Positions 10,601-55,585 of a DNA stretch of 64,000 nucleotides are shown one piece after another. Positions within the stretch are counted from its first letter, which is position 1. The number at the start of each line of letters is the position of its first letter. This stretch comes from Escherichia virus TH58. The notes under the pieces were generated by a model. That model was not told the DNA's origin, made no database searches, and saw only the letters and a program-made list of their open reading frames with translations. The translations under genes were made by a program, and so were the position numbers. The DNA lies in sequence record MT446423.1. One strand, written 5' to 3'.

Positions 10601-10626
10601 GAACTCTTCGGAGTTCCTTTTTTTTT
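10600..10626 (+). terminator. rho-independent terminator
   Basis: GGAACTC-ttcg-GAGTTCC hairpin followed by nine T. Confidence 0.8.
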
Positions 10627-10673: not shown

Positions 10674-10817
10674 ATGATTATATTTTTAGGTGTGACTATA
10701 TTGATATTAGCCTTCTATCTATTCACTAGGGCGTGTTGGATAGGTTTCTTTAGTACCCCAGATGGATTAATTTCTATGGTTTTATTTTGCATTGCGATAA
10801 TGGCGTTAGACTTATGA
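10674..10817 (+). CDS. small hydrophobic protein (47 aa)
   Basis: ORF read by eye; GAGGAAAA SD; stop overlaps ATG of gene 47. Confidence 0.35.
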   Translation: MIIFLGVTILILAFYLFTRACWIGFFSTPDGLISMVLFCIAIMALDL

Positions 10818-20207: not shown

Positions 20208-20843
20208 ATGAAAACTACTCCTATTACTATCGCTATTGACGCAATCATAAAACAAGCTTCTTCTTTGGCCGCTATGGCCAAAGTAATTAGTCAAAACCCT
20301 GCTCGTTATAATGCTATTCTAGAAACTCTTCGACGCCCAGGACTTAGTAATTATGAAAGTCGTGTAATTATTACAGGTGTTGGTAAGAACGCTAATATCG
20401 CAACTAAAGCTTCTGAGACTTTTGCTTCATTAGGTATTCCTAGCATGTATTTGAACACCGGGCATTATTCTCACGGCGATGCAGGATTCATTGCGCCTAA
20501 TGATGTGTTGATTCATATTAGTCGTTCTGGTAAAACTGAAGAAATGATAGGCGTGGCTAAGCATCTTAAAATGATTCGTCCGAACGTCAAACAGATTCTG
20601 TTGCATTGTAACCCAGACATTCCACAAGAAAATGAAGCCCTTTTTGATTACTCTTTCTGTACAGGCATCGCAGTAGAGGTTGATGAGAATTCTCTGGCTC
20701 CGACTATGTCCACTACATTGTTGTTAGCGCTTATCGATACGTTTGCTATCAACCTTTCGTCTGAACGTGGATTTACCTCTAATGACTTCCTTAAGTTCCA
20801 CCCTGGTGGTGCACTAGGTGCCATGTTACGAGGCGAACAATGA
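20208..20843 (+). CDS. SIS-domain sugar-phosphate isomerase, arabinose-5-phosphate isomerase-like (no CBS domains)
   Basis: GVGKNANIATKASETFASLGIPSMYL..HGDAGFIAPNDVLIHISRSGKTEE matches the KdsD/KpsF/GutQ SIS signature; not found at this locus in T4. Confidence 0.8.
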   Translation: MKTTPITIAIDAIIKQASSLAAMAKVISQNPARYNAILETLRRPGLSNYESRVIITGVGKNANIATKASETFASLGIPSMYLNTGHYSHGDAGFIAPNDVLIHISRSGKTEEMIGVAKHLKMIRPNVKQILLHCNPDIPQENEALFDYSFCTGIAVEVDENSLAPTMSTTLLLALIDTFAINLSSERGFTSNDFLKFHPGGALGAMLRGEQ

Positions 20844-20983
20844 AAGCAATAACAATAGGACTTTTACTATTGATGCTTGTCATGACTATCTACTGGAGCT
20901 TAACGGCTCCAGTAATGATTCCAACACTTGTAATCGGATGGATTATGATTGGACTACAAGCAAAGTATGAATGCTTTAACTAG
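20840..20983 (+). CDS. small hydrophobic protein (47 aa)
   Basis: ORF read by eye; ATG overlaps stop of the SIS gene; two predicted TM segments. Confidence 0.3.
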   Translation: MKAITIGLLLLMLVMTIYWSLTAPVMIPTLVIGWIMIGLQAKYECFN

Positions 20984-26206: not shown

Positions 26207-26755
26207 ATGGCTAAAATTATTTTAGTAGATGGCCCGGATAATGCTGGTAAAACAACTTTCATTAATGACATAATGGAAATTAGTGAAAGATATGTAAAGA
26301 TTGATTTCCCTAAACGAACAGTTGACGGACGTTTCGATGTTAAGTCTCGAAATGAAGTTGGTTGTTTCGAAACGATGTTGAATTATTTAGATCCTACTAA
26401 GATTTATCTGTTAGACCGTGGATATATTAGTAACTGGGTTTATGGACGTATTCGTCAAGATGCTGACTCGGTTCTTGACGTTTATGAACAGGATTATGTT
26501 CGTCTTTGCCAAAACCACGATGTGTTCACAATTATTTTAACACGTAACGAAATGACTGAAAGTTTTGAAGACGACCTTATTACTTTGTCTTCATTCGGTT
26601 TTAATACAGTAATTTCATATTTTGAAGAGTTTGCAATCCATAACGAAATCCAAACGTATCAATTACTTAATCATGATGGTGCTAACAAAGTTATAGGATT
26701 TAATGCAAGCGAACGTAATAATTTGATTACAGAAATTATCAAATGGGCTCGTTAA
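26207..26755 (+). CDS. P-loop kinase, nucleotide-kinase-like (182 aa)
   Basis: Walker A ILVDGPDNAGKTT at N-terminus, LDRGYISN downstream; thymidylate/deoxynucleotide-kinase-like architecture. Confidence 0.6.
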   Translation: MAKIILVDGPDNAGKTTFINDIMEISERYVKIDFPKRTVDGRFDVKSRNEVGCFETMLNYLDPTKIYLLDRGYISNWVYGRIRQDADSVLDVYEQDYVRLCQNHDVFTIILTRNEMTESFEDDLITLSSFGFNTVISYFEEFAIHNEIQTYQLLNHDGANKVIGFNASERNNLITEIIKWAR

Positions 26756-31363: not shown

Positions 31364-31393
31364 TGTTTACATTATAGATGGACTATGGTATAG
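31364..31393 (+). promoter_or_regulatory. early promoter (-35 GTTTAC, -10 TATAGT)
   Basis: GTTTAC, about 18-nt spacer, TATAGT then AGTCCTATC. Confidence 0.5.
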
Positions 31394-31423
31394 TAGTCCT
31401 ATCAAATCAACTAAGGAGTTAAA

Positions 31424-50018: not shown

Positions 50019-50966
50019 ATGTACAATATCAAATGCTTGTCCCAAGAAGAACAGTTAGAAGCTTACGGCCTGGTTGAATCAGGCAAATGGACTCGTAAAG
50101 AAATTGCTGATTACTTCGACATTTCAACAGATACTCTTCGTAAGATTGTTAAGAATTTTAAAGCTGAAGGCGTTGTCCCTGAAGCAAACGATGCCTCTTA
50201 TGTAATCGAAGAAGTTCCAGAAAATAATGAACCTATTATTACAGGTCACCGTCCAGAAATAGTATGGAACGCGTCATCTAAATTTATTTCAATCATTGAA
50301 GGACGCGTAGCATACAATGCGACCCCATCAAGTCATGCAAATTTTGAAGAAATTAAAGCTAATTTGGTCGCAGGAAACCTTAGTAAAGCTGTCGAACTTA
50401 TTAACATCAAGAAAGCTATTAGTAAGTTTGTTGACGGTAATGTTGTTATTGAAGGTGGTAGTTTATTTTATCAAGGTATAGAGATTCGTTCTGGTCTGGT
50501 TAATCGTATTATTGATTCTATGGAAAAAGGCGAAGACTTTAAATTCTATCTACCGTTCCTTGAAAACCTGTTAGAAAACCCAAGCGAAAAAGCTGTACAA
50601 CGTTTATTCGACTTCTTGGTTGCAAATGATATTGAAATCACTGAAGATGGGCATTTCTACGCGTGGAAAGTAGTTCGTAAAGATTATTTAGATTGCTATA
50701 GCGGTACATTTGATAACTCACCAGGTAAAGTTGTTTCAATGCCTCGTACTCGTGTTAACGATGATGATACACAAACCTGCTCCCGTGGTCTACATGTTTG
50801 CGCTAAATCGTATATTCGTTACTTTGGTTCTAGCTCAGATAAAGTTGTTAAGGTTAAAGTTCATCCACGTGATGTTGTGTCCATCCCAGTTGACTATGGC
50901 GATGCTAAGATGCGTACTTGTCGTTATGAAGTAATTTCAGACGTTACTGAATTATTTGCAGAATAA
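50019..50966 (+). CDS. rIIB: rIIB protein
   Basis: 315 aa directly downstream of rIIA; T4 size and synteny. Confidence 0.88.
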   Translation: MYNIKCLSQEEQLEAYGLVESGKWTRKEIADYFDISTDTLRKIVKNFKAEGVVPEANDASYVIEEVPENNEPIITGHRPEIVWNASSKFISIIEGRVAYNATPSSHANFEEIKANLVAGNLSKAVELINIKKAISKFVDGNVVIEGGSLFYQGIEIRSGLVNRIIDSMEKGEDFKFYLPFLENLLENPSEKAVQRLFDFLVANDIEITEDGHFYAWKVVRKDYLDCYSGTFDNSPGKVVSMPRTRVNDDDTQTCSRGLHVCAKSYIRYFGSSSDKVVKVKVHPRDVVSIPVDYGDAKMRTCRYEVISDVTELFAE

Positions 50967-51312: not shown

Positions 51313-51789
51313 ATGAAGGTGAAGATTGCTGACACTGCTCGGTATTCCCTGAGCCAAAATCCTGACCAAAACAAAGAAGATGTAGTTCGACGTTGTAAGG
51401 TTGCGGTCTTTGCAGAGTATGTAGTAGCAAATTGGCTAGACGGATATGTTAATAAAGGTATTGAAGATGTAGAAGACCCGTACACGTATGCATGGGACGT
51501 GTTAGCCCATCCCAAATATTGTGGAATTCGTGTAGAAGTCAAGACACACCAGATAGATTCTAAATGGATTTCTGTTACCACAGGATACAGTGGTGATTAT
51601 CCGGGTGGCAACGGAATCAATATAGGGCCCTTCTTGAACCATCGAGTCGCAGATTGCATTATTATATTAGATGTCAAAGAAACCTCACCTGACGTCTTCT
51701 CTTATTCTATAAAGTTCGTGGGAGACCATGAAGACCTAAAGAAAATCGTCCGCAAGAGCAACTACAATGGGTGGTATCTTCAACTTTAA
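51313..51789 (+). CDS. hypothetical protein (158 aa), at the T4 denB position
   Basis: First non-overlapping ATG of track ORF 51169-51789; start uncertain; no endonuclease motif recognised. Confidence 0.4.
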   Translation: MKVKIADTARYSLSQNPDQNKEDVVRRCKVAVFAEYVVANWLDGYVNKGIEDVEDPYTYAWDVLAHPKYCGIRVEVKTHQIDSKWISVTTGYSGDYPGGNGINIGPFLNHRVADCIIILDVKETSPDVFSYSIKFVGDHEDLKKIVRKSNYNGWYLQL

Positions 51790-51801
51790 TTTCATAAAAG
51801 T

Positions 51802-51831
51802 GTTTACAACTAAGTAGGACTATGATATAGT
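51802..51831 (+). promoter_or_regulatory. early promoter (-35 GTTTAC, -10 TATAGT)
   Basis: GTTTAC, 18-nt spacer, TATAGT then AGTCCTATC. Confidence 0.55.
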
Positions 51832-51857
51832 AGTCCTATCTAAAAGAGGATAACATC

Positions 51858-52121
51858 ATGAAATTTAAATTTTTCTACGCAAAACATAAAGTAACAGGCG
51901 AATTTGTTTCAATGTACAACACTGCAGATGACGAAGGGATGATTTATACCCATTTGGGACTATCTCATTGGGACTCAGACGTGCCTTATATGTCATCTGA
52001 AGCCGAAATAACTCGTCTGGTTAATGGACATATGAACGACCATTTTAGTGTTATTCTTTCTAAAGACCTTAAAGAGGTTATCAACAAAGGATATATGGAA
52101 CTCGCGGAAGTTGAGATATGA
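51858..52121 (+). CDS. hypothetical protein (87 aa)
   Basis: Track ORF with AGAGGA SD. Confidence 0.5.
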   Translation: MKFKFFYAKHKVTGEFVSMYNTADDEGMIYTHLGLSHWDSDVPYMSSEAEITRLVNGHMNDHFSVILSKDLKEVINKGYMELAEVEI

Positions 52122-52204
52122 GCTCTAAAATGTGGATCGGAATATGGTTGCTTAGTATCCCTATGATTTGTATAATATTTTCAATTGCATTGAGGTACTT
52201 ATGA
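52118..52204 (+). CDS. small hydrophobic peptide (28 aa)
   Basis: ORF read by eye; ATGA overlap with upstream stop; single TM-like segment. Confidence 0.25.
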   Translation: MSSKMWIGIWLLSIPMICIIFSIALRYL

Positions 52205-52311
52205 AAAATGCACTTCTTATTGTACTAAGAACAATTTGCGATACAGGTTTTTACATCGCATGTTCGTTCACCGGAACATGGTTGGCTTTAACATATTTTA
52301 ATGTAATTTAA
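52201..52311 (+). CDS. small hydrophobic peptide (36 aa)
   Basis: ORF read by eye; GAGG SD 6 nt upstream of ATG. Confidence 0.3.
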   Translation: MKNALLIVLRTICDTGFYIACSFTGTWLALTYFNVI

Positions 52312-52313
52312 TT

Positions 52314-52343
52314 GTTTACATCAAGGTAGGATTATGGTATAGT
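52314..52343 (+). promoter_or_regulatory. early promoter (-35 GTTTAC, -10 TATAGT)
   Basis: GTTTAC, 18-nt spacer, TATAGT then AGTCCTAC. Confidence 0.55.
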
Positions 52344-52371
52344 AGTCCTACTGAAACATGAGGAACACAAA

Positions 52372-52572
52372 ATGGCTAAGCTTTTTAAAGATGTTGAAAT
52401 TGGTGAAAAATTTGTTCTGAATAATGGTCAGCAGCTTATTCGTGTAGCTTCTATCGCCGGACAAACTCATAACTGTATCGCCCCAACGTGTTGGACTCGA
52501 TTCTTTATTGAAGATGATACTGAATGTTTAACTGTTGAAGAGCTTTTTGAACGTTCTGATATGGCCGAATAA
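52372..52572 (+). CDS. hypothetical protein (66 aa)
   Basis: Track ORF with GAGGAA SD. Confidence 0.45.
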   Translation: MAKLFKDVEIGEKFVLNNGQQLIRVASIAGQTHNCIAPTCWTRFFIEDDTECLTVEELFERSDMAE

Positions 52573-52574
52573 AA

Positions 52575-52604
52575 TTGTACAAACTCTTGAGAGCAGAGTA
52601 TAAT
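52575..52604 (+). promoter_or_regulatory. early promoter (-35 TTGTAC, -10 TATAAT) with -10 inside a short hairpin
   Basis: TTGTAC-aaactcttgagagcagag-TATAAT; TGAGAGCA..TGCTCTCA inverted repeat spans the -10; near-identical copy at 8343. Confidence 0.5.
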
Positions 52605-52648
52605 GCTCTCATGGATTACAAAAACATTAATCAATTGAGGAAATTAGC

Positions 52649-53095
52649 ATGTCCAAATATTTAACTCGTAAAGACCTTCTGGCAGTTGGCGGTGAAGTTG
52701 TTGCAGTAGTTCGTAATGGCGAATACGGTTCTGAAGTTTCTAAAGAGTTTCGTTCTCGTGAAGGTTTTTACTTCTTTGTTAAAGGTTCATCTGATTGGCG
52801 TCAAGTAGCAGCACGATTCTTTGTAGGACGTCAACGTTCTAAACAAGGGTTGGATGCAATTCTTTCTCACATTCGTCAAGGCCGTTCGCAACTAGCCCGT
52901 ACCATGGGCACTAACAATATTGAATATGATGTAATCTTTGTTGCAGCTAAGAACATGAAACCACTGACTACTGGTTATGGTAAAGGACAATTGGCTCTAG
53001 CATTCACTCGCAATCATACATCAGAATATCAAACACTCACTGAAATGAACCGTCTTCTGGCAGATAATTTCAAATTCATTCTGCAGAGTTACTAA
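52649..53095 (+). CDS. ndd: nucleoid disruption protein Ndd
   Basis: 148 aa; ..[61 protein letters not shown] matches T4 Ndd as remembered. Confidence 0.85.
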
Positions 53096-53102
53096 TTTAT
53101 AC

Positions 53103-53136
53103 GGGCCTATTAAGTTGGCCCTTTAATTTATTTTTT
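53103..53136 (+). terminator. rho-independent terminator
   Basis: GGGCC-9 nt loop-GGCCC followed by TTTAATTTATTTTTT. Confidence 0.6.
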
Positions 53137-53148
53137 GAGGTAATTAAA

Positions 53149-53295
53149 ATGGTAACATGGATTATTGCATTGCTGTGTTGGACGTTTTTATTCGTTAACA
53201 CTTTAGTTACAGGCGAAACAACAGTATTTCAACAGGCGGTGTCACAAGGTACTTTAGCGGTCTTAGCTCTTTTTAACGTATTAAAAGGCGAGTAA
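53149..53295 (+). CDS. small membrane protein (48 aa), possible ac-like
   Basis: ORF read by eye between ndd and gene 52; hydrophobic; T4 carries ac and stp here. Confidence 0.35.
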   Translation: MVTWIIALLCWTFLFVNTLVTGETTVFQQAVSQGTLAVLALFNVLKGE

Positions 53296-53435
53296 TGATT
53301 AAGAAAATCTTAGCAGGAGCCTTCGGGCTCTTGTTGTTGCTTATGGTTCTGTACTATGGTGTGATGTTTGGACTAATCCAAGTAGTGCTTTTCATTTCAG
53401 ATGTTATAATGACTATTCGTTCATTAATATGGTGA
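53295..53435 (+). CDS. small membrane protein (46 aa)
   Basis: ORF read by eye; TAATG overlap with previous small ORF; hydrophobic. Confidence 0.35.
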   Translation: MIKKILAGAFGLLLLLMVLYYGVMFGLIQVVLFISDVIMTIRSLIW

Positions 53436-53439
53436 AAAT

Positions 53440-54765
53440 ATGCAATTGAATTCTCGTAATCTAAAAAGTATTATTGATAACGAAGCCTTAGCATATGCTA
53501 TGTACACCGTTGAAAACCGTGCAATCCCAAACATGATTGATGGATTTAAGCCGGTTCAACGTTTTGTAGTTCATCGTGCATTAGATTTGGCTCGTGGTAA
53601 TAAAGAAAAATTTCATAAACTTGCGTCAATTGCAGGTGGTGTAGCAGACCTTGGATATCATCATGGTGAAATCTCTGCGCAAGACGCAGGTGCTTTGATG
53701 GCTAATACTTGGAATAATAACTTTCCTCTGTTAGATGGTCAAGGAAACTTTGGTTCTAGAACAGTCCAAAAAGCTGCAGCATCTCGTTATATTTTTGCTC
53801 GTGTAAGTAAAAATTTCTATAACGTATATAAAGATACTGAATATGCTCCAGCTCATGAAGATAAAGAACACGTTCCACCAAAATTCTATCTTCCTATTAT
53901 TCCGACAGTTCTTTTGAATGGTGTCTCCGGTATTGCAACCGGTTATGCAACAAATATTCTGCCTCATAGTTTTAAATCGGTCAAAAAGGCGGTATTACAA
54001 GCTCTTCAAGGTAAAAATGTCACTAAGCCAAAAGTTGAATTCCCAGAATTCCGTGGTGAAGTGCATGAAGTTGATGGGCGTTATGAGATTCACGGAACAT
54101 ACAAGTTCACATCTCGTACTCAAATGCAGATAACTGAAATCCCATATAAATTCGACCGTGAAACGTATGTGAGTAAGGTTCTTGACCCGTTGGAAGACAA
54201 AGGTCTAATCTCATGGGAAGATGATTGTGGTGAACACGGCTTTGGGTTTAAGGTGAAGTTCCGTAAAGAGTACTCGCTTCCTGATGATGAAGAGCTACGT
54301 CATGAAAAAATCATGAAAGATTTTAGTCTCATCGAACGTCGCTCACAAAACATCACAGTGATTAATGAAAAGGGTAAATTAGCGGTCTACGATAACGTAG
54401 TGGACTTAATCAAAGATTTTGTTGAAGTCCGTAAGACTTACGTTCAGAAACGTATTGACAACAAAATCCTTGAATCTGAAAAAGCATTTAAACTGGCTTT
54501 TGCTAAGGCACACTTCATCAAAAAAGTTATCAGTGGCGAAATTGTGATTCAAGGCAAGACCCGTAAAGCTTTGACTGAAGAGCTAGCACAAATCGAAATG
54601 TACAAAGAACATGTCGATAAACTGGTGGGTCTTAACATCTTCCATATCACTTCTGACGAAGCACGTAAACTGGCAGAAGAAGCTAAAGCTAAGAAAGAAG
54701 AAAATGAGTATTGGAAGTCTACTGATGTTGTGACAGAGTACACTAAAGACTTGGAGGCGCTTTGA
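53440..54765 (+). CDS. 52: DNA topoisomerase II medium subunit gp52 (GyrA-like)
   Basis: 441 aa; N-terminal ..TVENRAIPNMIDGFKPVQRFV.. topo IIA DNA-cleavage domain. Confidence 0.9.
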   Translation: MQLNSRNLKSIIDNEALAYAMYTVENRAIPNMIDGFKPVQRFVVHRALDLARGNKEKFHKLASIAGGVADLGYHHGEISAQDAGALMANTWNNNFPLLDGQGNFGSRTVQKAAASRYIFARVSKNFYNVYKDTEYAPAHEDKEHVPPKFYLPIIPTVLLNGVSGIATGYATNILPHSFKSVKKAVLQALQGKNVTKPKVEFPEFRGEVHEVDGRYEIHGTYKFTSRTQMQITEIPYKFDRETYVSKVLDPLEDKGLISWEDDCGEHGFGFKVKFRKEYSLPDDEELRHEKIMKDFSLIERRSQNITVINEKGKLAVYDNVVDLIKDFVEVRKTYVQKRIDNKILESEKAFKLAFAKAHFIKKVISGEIVIQGKTRKALTEELAQIEMYKEHVDKLVGLNIFHITSDEARKLAEEAKAKKEENEYWKSTDVVTEYTKDLEAL

Positions 54766-54841
54766 GTGCCCTAGCCTTAGGATTTCTCGGTGCAATAGCT
54801 GCACTAGTGATTTGGCTGTATTGGTTAGACAAACATGATTA

Positions 54842-54861
54842 GGGAGCTTCGGCTCCCTTTT
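54842..54861 (+). terminator. rho-independent terminator
   Basis: GGGAGC-ttcg-GCTCCC followed by TTTTGTGCATTTTTTT. Confidence 0.8.
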
Positions 54862-54952: not shown

Positions 54953-55585
54953 ATGTCTAAAGTTACTTACATCATCAAAGCTTCTGAAAACGCTCTGAAT
55001 GAAAAAACTGCTGCAATAATGGTTTATATCATTAAGAACAACTTCACCACTGCTGCCAATGTCCGTGAAGCTCTGGAAGCAGAATACAATGCATCAGTTG
55101 TTAACTCTAACATTGGTGTATTGATTAAGAAAGGTTTAGTCGAAAAATCAGGTGATGGACTTGTAGCAACAGGCGAAGCAATGGATATTATCCAAAAAGC
55201 CGCAGACCTCTTTGCCCAAGAAAATGCTCCAGAACTTCTTCAGAAACGTAACACCAGAAAAGCACGTGGAGTTACTCCTGAAATGCATGAATTAGCAAAC
55301 TTTGTTTTTGAAAATATTAAAGATAAAGTTGAAGTTAAAGAAATTGGCGAAAACCGTAGTAACTTAGAAGTTCGATTTGCAAAACGAGTTCTAGGTATTC
55401 GCCAGATCGAAATTCGTCGAGATGGTTCTCTTAGAATCTTTGCGTACAACATGTCAGAAACTGAATCAAAGCTGTTTACTTCTCTTGAAAATGATGTTAA
55501 GATTAAAATCGGTGGTAAATATACTTACATTGACTTCCCTAATGTGTCCAAAGAAATCATTACCCTTGTAACTAACGTACTGTGA
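54953..55585 (+). CDS. motA: middle-transcription activator MotA
   Basis: 210 aa; MSKVTYIIKAS..NSNIGVLIKKGLVEKSGDGL..QENAPELL matches T4 MotA as remembered. Confidence 0.9.
   Translation: MSKVTYIIKASENALNEKTAAIMVYIIKNNFTTAANVREALEAEYNASVVNSNIGVLIKKGLVEKSGDGLVATGEAMDIIQKAADLFAQENAPELLQKRNTRKARGVTPEMHELANFVFENIKDKVEVKEIGENRSNLEVRFAKRVLGIRQIEIRRDGSLRIFAYNMSETESKLFTSLENDVKIKIGGKYTYIDFPNVSKEIITLVTNVL

Follow-up and report, generated by a model that had tools for sequence, protein, structure and literature searches.

The tiny hydrophobic open reading frames (ORFs) near topoisomerase gene 52 of Escherichia virus TH58 are real, conserved and already catalogued genes for small membrane proteins, together with one genus-specific gene. 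We analyzed a window of 64,000 nucleotides (MT446423.1) from this RB69-like T-even phage (Mosigvirus), which is ∼98% identical to many GenBank genomes. The best explanation of the set as a whole, to which we assign a probability of roughly 85%, is that these ORFs are true genes, expressed early, whose products are very small inner-membrane proteins of the T-even accessory repertoire. On sequence comparison, three of the four ORFs on the gene 52 side proved to be orthologues of T4 ndd.6, ac, and 52.1, with their order kept between denB and gene 52. The observation holds but is unremarkable, being already known: T4 annotates ndd.6, ac, 52.1, and 47.1, and five of the six ORFs are annotated in phage 55, the exception being the 47.1 insert, which is absent there. 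The ORFs are, in other words, not new candidates.

All six proposed ORFs were found with exactly the proposed boundaries (Table 1), and a purine-rich Shine-Dalgarno-like motif lies 5-13 nt 5' of each start, bearing out the claim of plausible ribosome-binding sequences. The best 19-residue Kyte-Doolittle means were 2.49, 1.56, 2.07, and 2.37 for the ORFs starting at 52118, 52201, 53149, and 53295, and 2.21 and 2.17 for those starting at 10674 and 20840. Single or double transmembrane segments, as had been suggested, were recovered for five of the six, which are clearly transmembrane-like by this measure; the 36-aa ORF is borderline and contains R10 and D14. The ORFs had also been placed in intergenic spaces; we found them instead packed onto their neighbors via ATGA or TAATG start/stop overlaps.

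Table 1. Features of the window discussed in the text (aa, amino acids; SD, Shine-Dalgarno-like motif)
Feature	Coordinates	Strand	Details
Gene 47.1 homologue, 47 aa, two hydrophobic segments	10674..10817	+	phrog_6693; 72% identity to T4 47.1
47-aa ORF, two hydrophobic segments	20840..20983	+	phrog_3610; "putative transmembrane protein" in phage 55
Early sigma-70 promoter, PeSL-type	51785..51838	+	TTTACA-17-TATAGT at 51803-51831 (promoter scan)
orf87, 87-aa soluble early ORF	51858..52121	+	phrog_2390; first gene of module
ndd.6 homologue, 28 aa, one transmembrane helix	52118..52204	+	phrog_8851, E = 1.9e-10; SD GGAAG/GAG
orf36, Mosigvirus-specific, 36 aa, weakly hydrophobic	52201..52311	+	phrog_18561; T4 ndd.5 slot; SD GAGG
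Second PeSL-type early promoter/stem-loop	52297..52350	+	TTTACA-17-TATAGT at 52315-52343; dG -13.6 kcal/mol, z -4.5
Terminator-like hairpin between ndd and ac	53103..53136	+	GGGCC-N9-GGCCC + T-run; fold weak, z -1.6
ac homologue, 48 aa, two predicted helices (residues 2-21, 24-46)	53149..53295	+	phrog_2501, E = 1.1e-21; SD GAGG
52.1 homologue, 46 aa, one long hydrophobic helix	53295..53435	+	Pfam DUF7396 (PF24129), phrog_3595; SD AAGGCGAG
Stable hairpin, UUCG loop, in 5' part of 52.1	53311..53336	+	dG -16.5 kcal/mol, z -3.0
Predicted MotA-dependent middle promoter P52, in codons 31-39 of 52.1	53383..53410	+	MotA box TAGTGCTTTT, 12-nt spacer, -10 TATAAT

Hydrophobicity alone did not lift these ORFs above chance. 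We counted ∼18 equally hydrophobic ATG-initiated ORFs out of frame inside the large genes of this 37% G+C genome, and the chance openness of a 28-48 codon frame, calculated from G+C content, is ∼0.03-0.14. Shuffled sequence yielded ∼0 ORFs combining hydrophobicity with a Shine-Dalgarno motif versus five observed; we gave this test little weight because real out-of-frame sequence yields many hydrophobic ORFs. The ORFs rise above chance because all six match PHROG profiles (E = 1e-10 to 1e-29) and because their frames are retained across genera. Conservation of the reading frames in relatives had been named beforehand as a test, and it holds: between genera, synonymous sites are saturated and amino-acid change is low, with the support weakest for the 36-codon ORF. 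Measured on fetched GenBank phage loci, not by tblastn, the breadth is seven genera for 52.1 and four each for ndd.6 and ac. These GenBank records were taken instead of IMG/VR, where a scan with the Ndd protein for syntenic loci gave three loci only. Pfam searches returned no family for the 28-, 36-, and 48-aa ORFs.

The 28-aa ORF belongs to the Ndd.6 family by its profile match, its length (28-29 aa in the family), its MSSxxW...SIPxIC motif, and its position 3' of denB, the last three of which it shares with T4 Ndd.6. The T4 protein matches the same PHROG and is 50% identical over all 28 residues (pN 0.29). A fuller pattern, MSSxxWxxxWxxxIPxICxxF, recurs in Mosigvirus, T4, Dhakavirus, and Gelderlandvirus, with SIP in three of the four genera and CIP in Dhakavirus. 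pN/pS was 0.10 within the genus, versus 0.20 in the alternative frame where this could be scored, and ∼0.3 between genera. The window copy differs from that of T4 in appearing translationally coupled to orf87, whose stop overlaps its start and whose within-genus pN/pS is 0.05. T4 has no such ORF at this position, whereas Dhakavirus is arranged like the window: in Dhakavirus NC-G, an orf87 homologue is directly followed by an ndd.6-like ORF.

This small module is bracketed by two early promoters. The first carries its -10 element inside a stem-loop (stem dG -13.2 kcal/mol, z -3.6), and the second is a 54-nt direct repeat of the first cassette, 81% identical to it, which is predicted to close the module and to drive ndd.1. 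The pairing of an early promoter consensus and a stable stem-loop, recurring at both edges of a variable small-ORF module, identifies both as members of the PeSL (promoter-early stem-loop) cassettes of T4-type phages (PMC2839356, PMC4122927). They share with these the TTTAC(A/T)-N17-TAnnnT early promoter, the stem-loop, and the repetition flanking small variable ORF modules; they differ in that the stem spans the -10 element itself.

The 48-aa ORF is the homologue of T4 ac. T4 Ac (51 aa) falls in the same PHROG (E = 2.2e-25), blastp aligned the two proteins with 37% identity over a 35-residue match (E = 2.4e-7; 32% over the full alignment), and many records carry the annotation "acridine resistance". 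The gene lies between ndd and 52.1 on the same strand, as in T4, and the order is the same in Dhakavirus and Gelderlandvirus. Both proteins are of similar length and predicted to form two helices with a break after ∼21-25 residues (joined at D26-A27 in T4 Ac), and they share the motifs W, SV.xQA, and QG. Among the shared residues is the glycine hit by the resistant T4 substitution G38R, with window G34 aligning to T4 G38; this glycine is not conserved in the Ac homologues of Dhakavirus and Gelderlandvirus. The AlphaFold2 model of the window protein has a mean pLDDT of 79. pN against T4 was 0.43, and within-genus pN/pS was 0.21 in frame versus 0.81 in the other frame scored. The window copy is three residues shorter than that of T4 and follows a terminator-like hairpin, not stp; phage NBG1 has a terminator annotated at the equivalent position. 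The proposal that the ORFs are homologues of T4 small membrane peptides near gene 52 thus stood for ac and fell for stp, which has no homologue in the window. tblastn of T4 Stp (phrog_6763) against the window gave an 8-residue chance match only (E = 0.95), and the ndd-ac gap, the stp slot in which a 26-aa Stp-like ORF was sought, measures 53 nt. Dhakavirus NC-G does have a Stp-like ORF. Stp itself is not a hydrophobic peptide.

In T4, Ac causes infected cells to accumulate acridines, the wild-type ac gene giving sensitivity and its loss resistance; phages lacking ac can plate on acriflavine, and expressing Ac by itself sensitizes E. coli, a phenotype known for T4 and T2 only (bioRxiv 10.1101/2025.06.30.662393). 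A 2025 preprint proposes that Ac blocks AcrAB-TolC efflux (bioRxiv 10.1101/2025.06.30.662393; PMC13250531). Ac is the only microprotein of the set with a phenotype, now proposed to disable a multidrug efflux pump, and its homologue and neighbors are reasonable candidates for small phage peptides targeting host membrane machinery. AcrZ of E. coli is a 49-aa single-helix protein that binds AcrB and supports the pump. Its likeness to Ac, a ∼50-aa inner-membrane helix proposed to act on AcrAB-TolC, is a functional analogy only: AcrZ supports the pump, whereas Ac is its proposed inhibitor, and the Ac-like ORF had no Pfam match at E <= 1, to AcrZ or to any other family.

The 46-aa ORF matched Pfam DUF7396 over residues 1-46 of 46 with 78.7 bits (cut-off 27), and AlphaFold2 modeled it as a single helix of residues 2-45 (pLDDT 96). 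It is 72% identical to T4 gp52.1, a "conserved hypothetical predicted membrane protein" that shares its length, its position 4 nt upstream of gene 52, and the embedded P52. The window gene ends in W-stop at 53435, the gene 52 ATG follows at 53440, and 52.1 is directly upstream of gene 52 in all seven genera. A tblastn search with 52.1 returned 150 records at E near 1e-4, an undercount caused by low-complexity filtering and by the shortness of the query. Against T4, pS was 0.75 and pN 0.18, below the value for Ndd itself (pN 0.29); the within-genus pN/pS of 0.46 does not separate frames.

The most conserved stretch of 52.1, VLFISDVIM, is also conserved as DNA because it carries P52. The MotA promoter consensus is (w)(w)(w)TGCTTtA, a 12 +/- 1 bp spacer, and a -10 TAtaaT (PMC2988021). 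The P52 DNA is nearly invariant across six genera, synonymous sites included (pS 0.33 versus 0.75-0.80 in codons 6-30). Pattern matching predicted a start near 53417; the mapped T4 P52 start site, 165227, lies 23 nt upstream of the gene 52 ATG, and the geometry in the window is the same. Part of the conservation of 52.1 thus comes from the embedded promoter and not from the peptide, a caution for conservation scans that meet such a tiny ORF. The N-terminal third of 52.1 differs from that of T4: there the window genus encodes an RNA-level UUCG hairpin that T4 lacks, its stem invariant in 11 Mosigvirus genomes and annotated as a terminator in NBG1, and the T4 codons differ across the matching segment.

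Two ORFs lie elsewhere in the window. The 47.1 homologue, with counterparts in 601 phage records, is placed between the gene 47 Shine-Dalgarno motif and middle promoter (a MotA-type promoter at 10624) and the gene 47 ATG. In phage 55, which has no 47.1, the gene 47 ATG comes right after the same Shine-Dalgarno motif, and gene 47 therefore does not need 47.1. The ORF at 20840 has a T4 homologue at 26227-26376, between imm and 42 (53% identity, pS 0.64, pN 0.26).

We weighed two other readings of the whole set. The ORFs could be chance open frames in T-rich DNA whose apparent conservation comes from overlapping regulatory DNA (promoters, stem-loops, the next gene's Shine-Dalgarno motif) and not from selection on the peptide. 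Such an origin would suit the ease with which hydrophobic ORFs arise by chance in this genome, the openness calculated above, and the coincidence of the most conserved 52.1 block with P52; the terminal TGG-stop of 52.1 also overlaps the gene 52 Shine-Dalgarno motif, and the orf36 3' end overlaps the second PeSL repeat. Outside the promoter block, however, 52.1 keeps YYG and G26 in codons 20-30 at pS 0.80 and pN 0.25, and in four genera ndd.6 and ac are preserved in length, position, and motifs at pS 0.6-0.8. The alternative frames of the ndd.6-like gene, orf36, and ac, where scorable, have a higher pN/pS than the annotated ones, and the T4 ac phenotype maps to single codons (bioRxiv 10.1101/2025.06.30.662393); we consider chance frames highly improbable. 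Alternatively, only the act of translation might matter, the ORFs serving as leaders that deliver ribosomes downstream on long early transcripts (from 52.1 to 52, from 47.1 to 47, and from the ORF at 20840 to the next gene). As one would expect of leaders, these ORFs either overlap the downstream gene at the stop/start or end 4 nt short of it, and each such ORF sits directly 5' of a larger gene, beside or around a MotA-type promoter that bypasses it. Yet the amino-acid conservation exceeds the needs of coupling, phage 55 lacks 47.1 and has the Shine-Dalgarno motif next to the gene 47 ATG, and both ac and the ndd.6-like ORF precede another tiny ORF rather than a major gene, which together make a pure leader role improbable as well.

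A separate doubt concerns orf36 only. Its ATG lies inside a longer TTG-started ORF beginning at 52168. T4 Ndd.5 (32 aa) shares its slot, the ATGA overlap with the ndd.6 stop, and an early promoter after it; we rejected orf36 as a diverged Ndd.5 protein, because orf36 matches phrog_18561 only and T4 Ndd.5 phrog_5011, with no blastp match at E <= 10. orf36 might be a remnant that is decaying or has no function, such as an ndd.5 with a scrambled frame, and be called a gene only because chance has left it open in a young, closely related genus. Its DNA aligns to T4 ndd.5 marginally (global z = 3.2, 1 of 2000 shuffles; local z = 2.3) and with gaps that are not multiples of three and break the frame. 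Its variable sites fall 6/3/6 by codon position, with no third-position excess, and make nine distinct proteins among 11 genomes; it has the lowest hydrophobicity of the set. Neither tblastn nor a search of 1.84 billion representatives, in which orf36 formed a single cluster, found a homologue outside the genus, and a 1-nt deletion frameshifts it in phage PECP20. PECP20 is, however, the only one of the 152 phage records matched by tblastn (named Escherichia, Shigella, Enterobacteria, or Mosigvirus) in which the match is split, in two pieces; the other 151 are continuous, at 91.7-100% amino-acid identity. Moreover, within-genus pN/pS is 0.26 in frame versus 1.09 and 1.56 in the other frames, the only indel in more than one genome is an in-frame codon deletion, and the gene has a good GAGG Shine-Dalgarno motif with an ATGA coupling overlap. 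We consider a remnant less likely than not. On a more speculative reading, which we think rather unlikely, orf36 would be a microprotein gene of recent origin, confined to the genus and derived from a frame-scrambled ancestral ndd.5 slot in the cassette-bracketed module. The denB-ndd.1 and ndd-52 slots would then act as nurseries in which tiny transmembrane genes arise, change frame, and are exchanged, with neighboring DNA signals such as P52 in 52.1 pinning parts of them in place.

If the set consists of genuine early genes, as we favor, host RNA polymerase would transcribe them in the first minutes of infection: orf87, the ndd.6-like gene, and orf36 from the PeSL-type stem-loop promoter at 51803-51831, and ac and 52.1 from the ndd promoter at 52576-52604, by transcription that reads through the weak terminator. 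In T4 omics data, the transcripts of 52.1, ac, and ndd.2-ndd.6 are classed as early; none of the small proteins appeared in the T4 proteome study (Class_P = NA). Judging from the ATGA and TAATG overlaps, each ORF may be translationally coupled to the gene before it, and each product would form one or two hydrophobic helices inserting into the host cytoplasmic membrane. The window Ac may act as T4 Ac does, by homology with that protein only. The ndd.6-like, orf36, and 52.1 products may likewise bind and modulate host inner-membrane proteins and would be dispensable in the laboratory; the role of "membrane-active effector" is one that we infer for all ORFs but Ac. The 3' third of 52.1 serves in addition, as DNA, as the middle promoter from which MotA activates topoisomerase gene 52. 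Our literature search on T4 ribosome profiling and small proteins found no relevant paper, and searches by gene name (ndd.4, ndd.5, ndd.6, gp52.1) returned only neurodevelopmental-disorder papers.

The practical value lies mostly in annotation quality, four genes being called inconsistently across ∼150 near-identical genomes. The ORFs had been said to fall at or below usual gene-calling thresholds, and the records agree: among nine annotated near-identical genomes, the 28-aa ORF was called in one, the 36-aa ORF in seven, ac in nine, and 52.1 in six. The T4 reference has a gap of its own, in that the conserved 49-aa hydrophobic homologue of the ORF at 20840, between imm and 42, is annotated in neither T4 record checked (NC_000866.4, AF158101.6). 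The phrog_8851 label "outer membrane protein" goes back to an old prediction in the T4 annotation; for a lone hydrophobic helix of 28 residues, the inner membrane is the more plausible location.

The initial annotation had pointed out six tiny hydrophobic ORFs from the sequence alone, and all were found at exactly those positions (see the table). We conclude that they are already-known genes and that orf36, the 36-aa ORF, is an already-annotated genus-specific gene; the observation is confirmed and its interpretation in part supported. Each of the six ORFs gave a full-length match to a PHROG family (E-values 1e-10 to 1e-29), and T4 counterparts share the families of three of the four main ORFs. 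The 52.1 homologue (46 aa) also scored 78.7 bits against Pfam DUF7396 (cut-off 27). Of the two T4 homologues proposed, ac proved right but stp did not: a search of the window with T4 Stp found nothing, and the ndd-ac gap is just 53 nt. Coding sequences and ribosome-binding sites for all four main ORFs are annotated in phage 55 (OQ599310). The remark that such ORFs fall at or below gene-calling thresholds was correct, as calls were inconsistent among nine annotated near-identical genomes (28-aa ORF 1/9, orf36 7/9, ac 9/9, 52.1 6/9).

Features of the window, with T4 matches where found
Feature	Coordinates	Strand	T4 counterpart	PHROG family	Identity to T4
ORF, 71 aa	5988-6203			phrog_1930	
47.1 homologue	10674-10817		gene 47.1		72%
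ORF at 20840	20840-20983		26227-26376 (complement)		53%
ORF, 31 aa	34229-34324				
ORF, 33 aa	43882-43983				
rIIB	50019-50966	+			
denB.1-like ORF	between rIIB and denB	+			
denB	end at 51789	+			
54-nt direct repeat, first copy	51785-51838				
Early promoter 1	51803-51831				
orf87 (87 aa)	51858-52121	+			
ndd.6-like ORF (28 aa)	52118-52204	+	Ndd.6	phrog_8851	50% over all 28 residues
orf36 (36 aa)	52201-52311	+		phrog_18561	
54-nt direct repeat, second copy	52297-52350				
Early promoter 2	52315-52343				
ndd.1	52372-52572	+			
ORF, 29 aa, TTG start	52575-52664				
Early promoter 3	52576-52604				
ndd	52649-53095	+			
Weak terminator-like hairpin	53103-53136				
ac homologue (48 aa)	53149-53295	+	Ac	phrog_2501	37% over 35-residue match
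52.1 homologue (46 aa)	53295-53435	+	gp52.1	phrog_3595	72% over 46 residues
UUCG-loop hairpin	53311-53336				
MotA-dependent promoter pattern	53383-53410				
Topoisomerase gene 52	53440-54765	+			
ORF, 26 aa, TTG start	54762-54842			weak match (E = 0.07)	
motA	54953-55585	+			

Plausible Shine-Dalgarno sequences had been claimed, and motifs of this kind were indeed seen upstream of all four main ORFs (GGAAG/GAG for the ndd.6-like ORF, GAGG at -10 for orf36, GAGG at -13 for ac and AAGGCGAG for 52.1). The description of the ORFs as lying in intergenic spaces did not hold; they are tightly packed genes, because their starts and stops overlap their neighbours. Of the four main ORFs, all but ac start in an overlap with the stop of the gene before (ATGA for the ndd.6-like ORF and orf36, TAATG for 52.1). 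A 4-nt overlap of this kind is also seen for the ORF at 20840, and the 10674 ORF ends in a stop that overlaps the gene 47 ATG. The best 19-residue hydropathy was 2.49 for the ndd.6-like ORF, 2.07 for ac and 2.37 for 52.1, in agreement with the transmembrane segments proposed; orf36, at 1.56, is borderline. Hydrophobicity alone is weak evidence here, because in this genome, with a G+C content of 37%, ~18 ATG ORFs of similar hydropathy lie out of frame within large genes. The chance probability of an open frame of 28-48 codons, calculated from base composition, is roughly 0.14-0.03.

We therefore turn to the reading frames themselves, comparing the denB-to-52 regions of T4, Dhakavirus, Winklervirus, Marfavirus, Gelderlandvirus, Karamvirus, Jiaodavirus, an Acinetobacter phage and Krischvirus. 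Seven genera have 52.1 directly upstream of gene 52; the count is four for ndd.6 and likewise four for ac. Relative to T4, pS and pN were 0.75 (saturated) and 0.18 for 52.1, 0.59 and 0.29 for ndd.6, and 0.62 and 0.43 for ac, with Ndd as a comparison at 0.66 and 0.29. Within Mosigvirus (11 genomes), the annotated frames had pN/pS values of 0.10 (ndd.6-like ORF), 0.26 (orf36), 0.21 (ac) and 0.46 (52.1). The alternative frames gave 1.09 and 1.56 for orf36, and the single scorable one gave 0.81 for ac and 0.20 for the ndd.6-like ORF; substitutions in 52.1 were too few to tell frames apart. Frame conservation in relatives had been set as a test that could refute the proposal. The comparisons, between genera for ndd.6, ac and 52.1 and within Mosigvirus, indicate purifying selection on the reading frames, and the proposal therefore stands.

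Selection on the protein is not the sole constraint on 52.1. In a codon alignment of six genera, the DNA of codons 31-39 (VLFISDVIM) was nearly invariant, synonymous sites included (GTG CTT TTC ATT TCN GAT GTT ATA/T), with a pS of 0.33 vs 0.75-0.80 in codons 6-30. This block coincides with a MotA-dependent middle promoter pattern (TAGTGCTTTT, 12 nt, TATAAT; consensus from PMC2988021). A T4 review table places the start of P52, the middle promoter of gene 52, at 165227 (printed as 65227 and read here as 165227), which is 7 nt 3' of the equivalent -10 element and 23 nt 5' of the gene 52 ATG; the same geometry is seen here. Because the low-pS block coincides with a MotA-type promoter, mapped as P52 in T4, the alignment argues that the most conserved peptide part of 52.1 is constrained by the promoter. 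Protein-level selection is still visible, on the same alignment, in codons 20-30, where YYG and G26 are retained through several different codons (pS 0.80, pN 0.25). An AlphaFold2 model without an alignment predicted a single helix at residues 2-45 (pLDDT 96). The 5' part of 52.1 also holds a UUCG-loop hairpin (dG -16.5 kcal/mol, z -3.0) followed by a T-rich run, which some Mosigvirus records label a terminator. Within the genus its stem does not vary, and the T4 codons for the segment differ. The hairpin may act as an attenuator of early transcription shortly before P52.

Further upstream, a stable stem-loop spans the -10 element of each of three early sigma-70 promoters (z-scores -3.6 to -4.5). 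The first two are contained in 54-nt direct repeats (81% identical) flanking a three-gene module of orf87, the ndd.6-like ORF and orf36. These repeat promoters and stem-loops agree with the promoter-early stem-loop (PeSL) cassettes of T4-type phages (PMC2839356, PMC4122927); 52588-52611 is also listed with PeSL-type cassettes, and the GGACTATGGTATAGTAGTCC stem recurs at another promoter near 31365 (about 31365-31405). A weak terminator-like hairpin follows ndd, and pattern scans of the ndd-ac gap found no promoter-like site and no MotA box, so ac and 52.1 would presumably be reached by read-through. The T4 genes 52.1, ac, stp and ndd.2-ndd.6 have transcripts of the early class, and none of their proteins was detected by mass spectrometry.

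The weakest case among the four is orf36, because its variable sites number 6/3/6 at the three codon positions, it is frameshifted in PECP20, and its matches are confined to 152 records and a single cluster. The PECP20 frameshift is a 1-nt deletion (equivalent of window 52245) in one genome, which may reflect either natural loss or an error in sequencing. All 152 tblastn matches are in records named Escherichia, Shigella or Enterobacteria phage, or Mosigvirus, with a single continuous match in 151 (91.7-100% amino-acid identity); the protein forms one cluster among 1.84 billion representative proteins. T4 Ndd.5, in the same slot, belongs to phrog_5011, and the two proteins are unrelated. The orf36 DNA (52208-52311) nevertheless aligns to T4 ndd.5 better than shuffled sequence (global z 3.2), although only when frame-breaking gaps are allowed. 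Both may have descended from a single ancestor by frame scrambling.

Of the four, the ac homologue alone has a T4 counterpart with a known function. T4 ac-null and point mutants, G38R included, plate on acriflavine ~10^4-fold above wild type, Ac expression by itself sensitises E. coli ~10^3-fold, and Ac is proposed to block AcrAB-TolC efflux (bioRxiv 10.1101/2025.06.30.662393), a proposal cited by a 2026 paper (PMC13250531). Our AlphaFold2 model of the homologue, made without an alignment (helices 2-21 and 24-46, pLDDT 79), agrees with the two-helix ESMfold model of T4 Ac (bioRxiv 10.1101/2025.06.30.662393). G34 of the homologue aligns with T4 G38, although the Ac proteins of Dhakavirus and Gelderlandvirus do not keep this glycine. 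For the ndd.6-like ORF, orf36 and 52.1, we infer only a putative role as host inner-membrane modulators.

Bases 51800-53500 matched 162 GenBank phage records, 153 of them at 95-99% identity; those whose taxonomy was inspected are Mosigvirus (RB69-like T-even phages of E. coli and Shigella). The gene order is that of T4 (rIIB-denB-ndd.x-ndd-(stp)-ac-52.1-52-motA), with two tiny hydrophobic ORFs between denB and ndd.1 vs seven in T4. Every Tevenvirinae genus sampled has one to four such ORFs back to back, of several families, between ndd and gene 52, and 52.1 is always the nearest to gene 52. The set in the window is a minimal version of this known hyperplastic region. The 750 nt that precede gene 52 in other genera hold, between ndd and 52, extra tiny transmembrane families without a counterpart here, one of 57-61 aa ending in G[VI][IY]K and one of ~52 aa with the motif GAWVPS; a Stp-like ORF is present in Dhakavirus NC-G.

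More small hydrophobic ORFs, absent from the initial annotation, lie in inter-gene gaps (71, 31, 33 and 26 aa, the last at the gene 52 end); the 31-aa and 33-aa ORFs had no PHROG match. The 29-aa ORF, annotated as a CDS in the NHEP11 and NicPhage records, overlaps the ndd promoter and start, had no PHROG match and is probably a spurious call.

The 47.1 homologue matched 601 records and is a 140-nt insertion that separates the Shine-Dalgarno motif of gene 47 precisely from its ATG; phage 55 is without it, a presence/absence polymorphism. It appears rare in Mosigvirus, judging from the matches, because 585/601 are only 60-80% identical (a T4-like level) and just 5 exceed 90%. The ORF at 20840 is a "putative transmembrane protein" in phage 55. 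Its T4 homologue (NC_000866.4), between imm and gene 42, is a conserved hydrophobic ORF of 49 aa (pS 0.64 and pN 0.26 against the window ORF), matches phrog_3610 and has no annotation in NC_000866.4 or AF158101.6. Its start overlaps the imm stop (ATGA), and the mapped P42 start (26320) lies within it.
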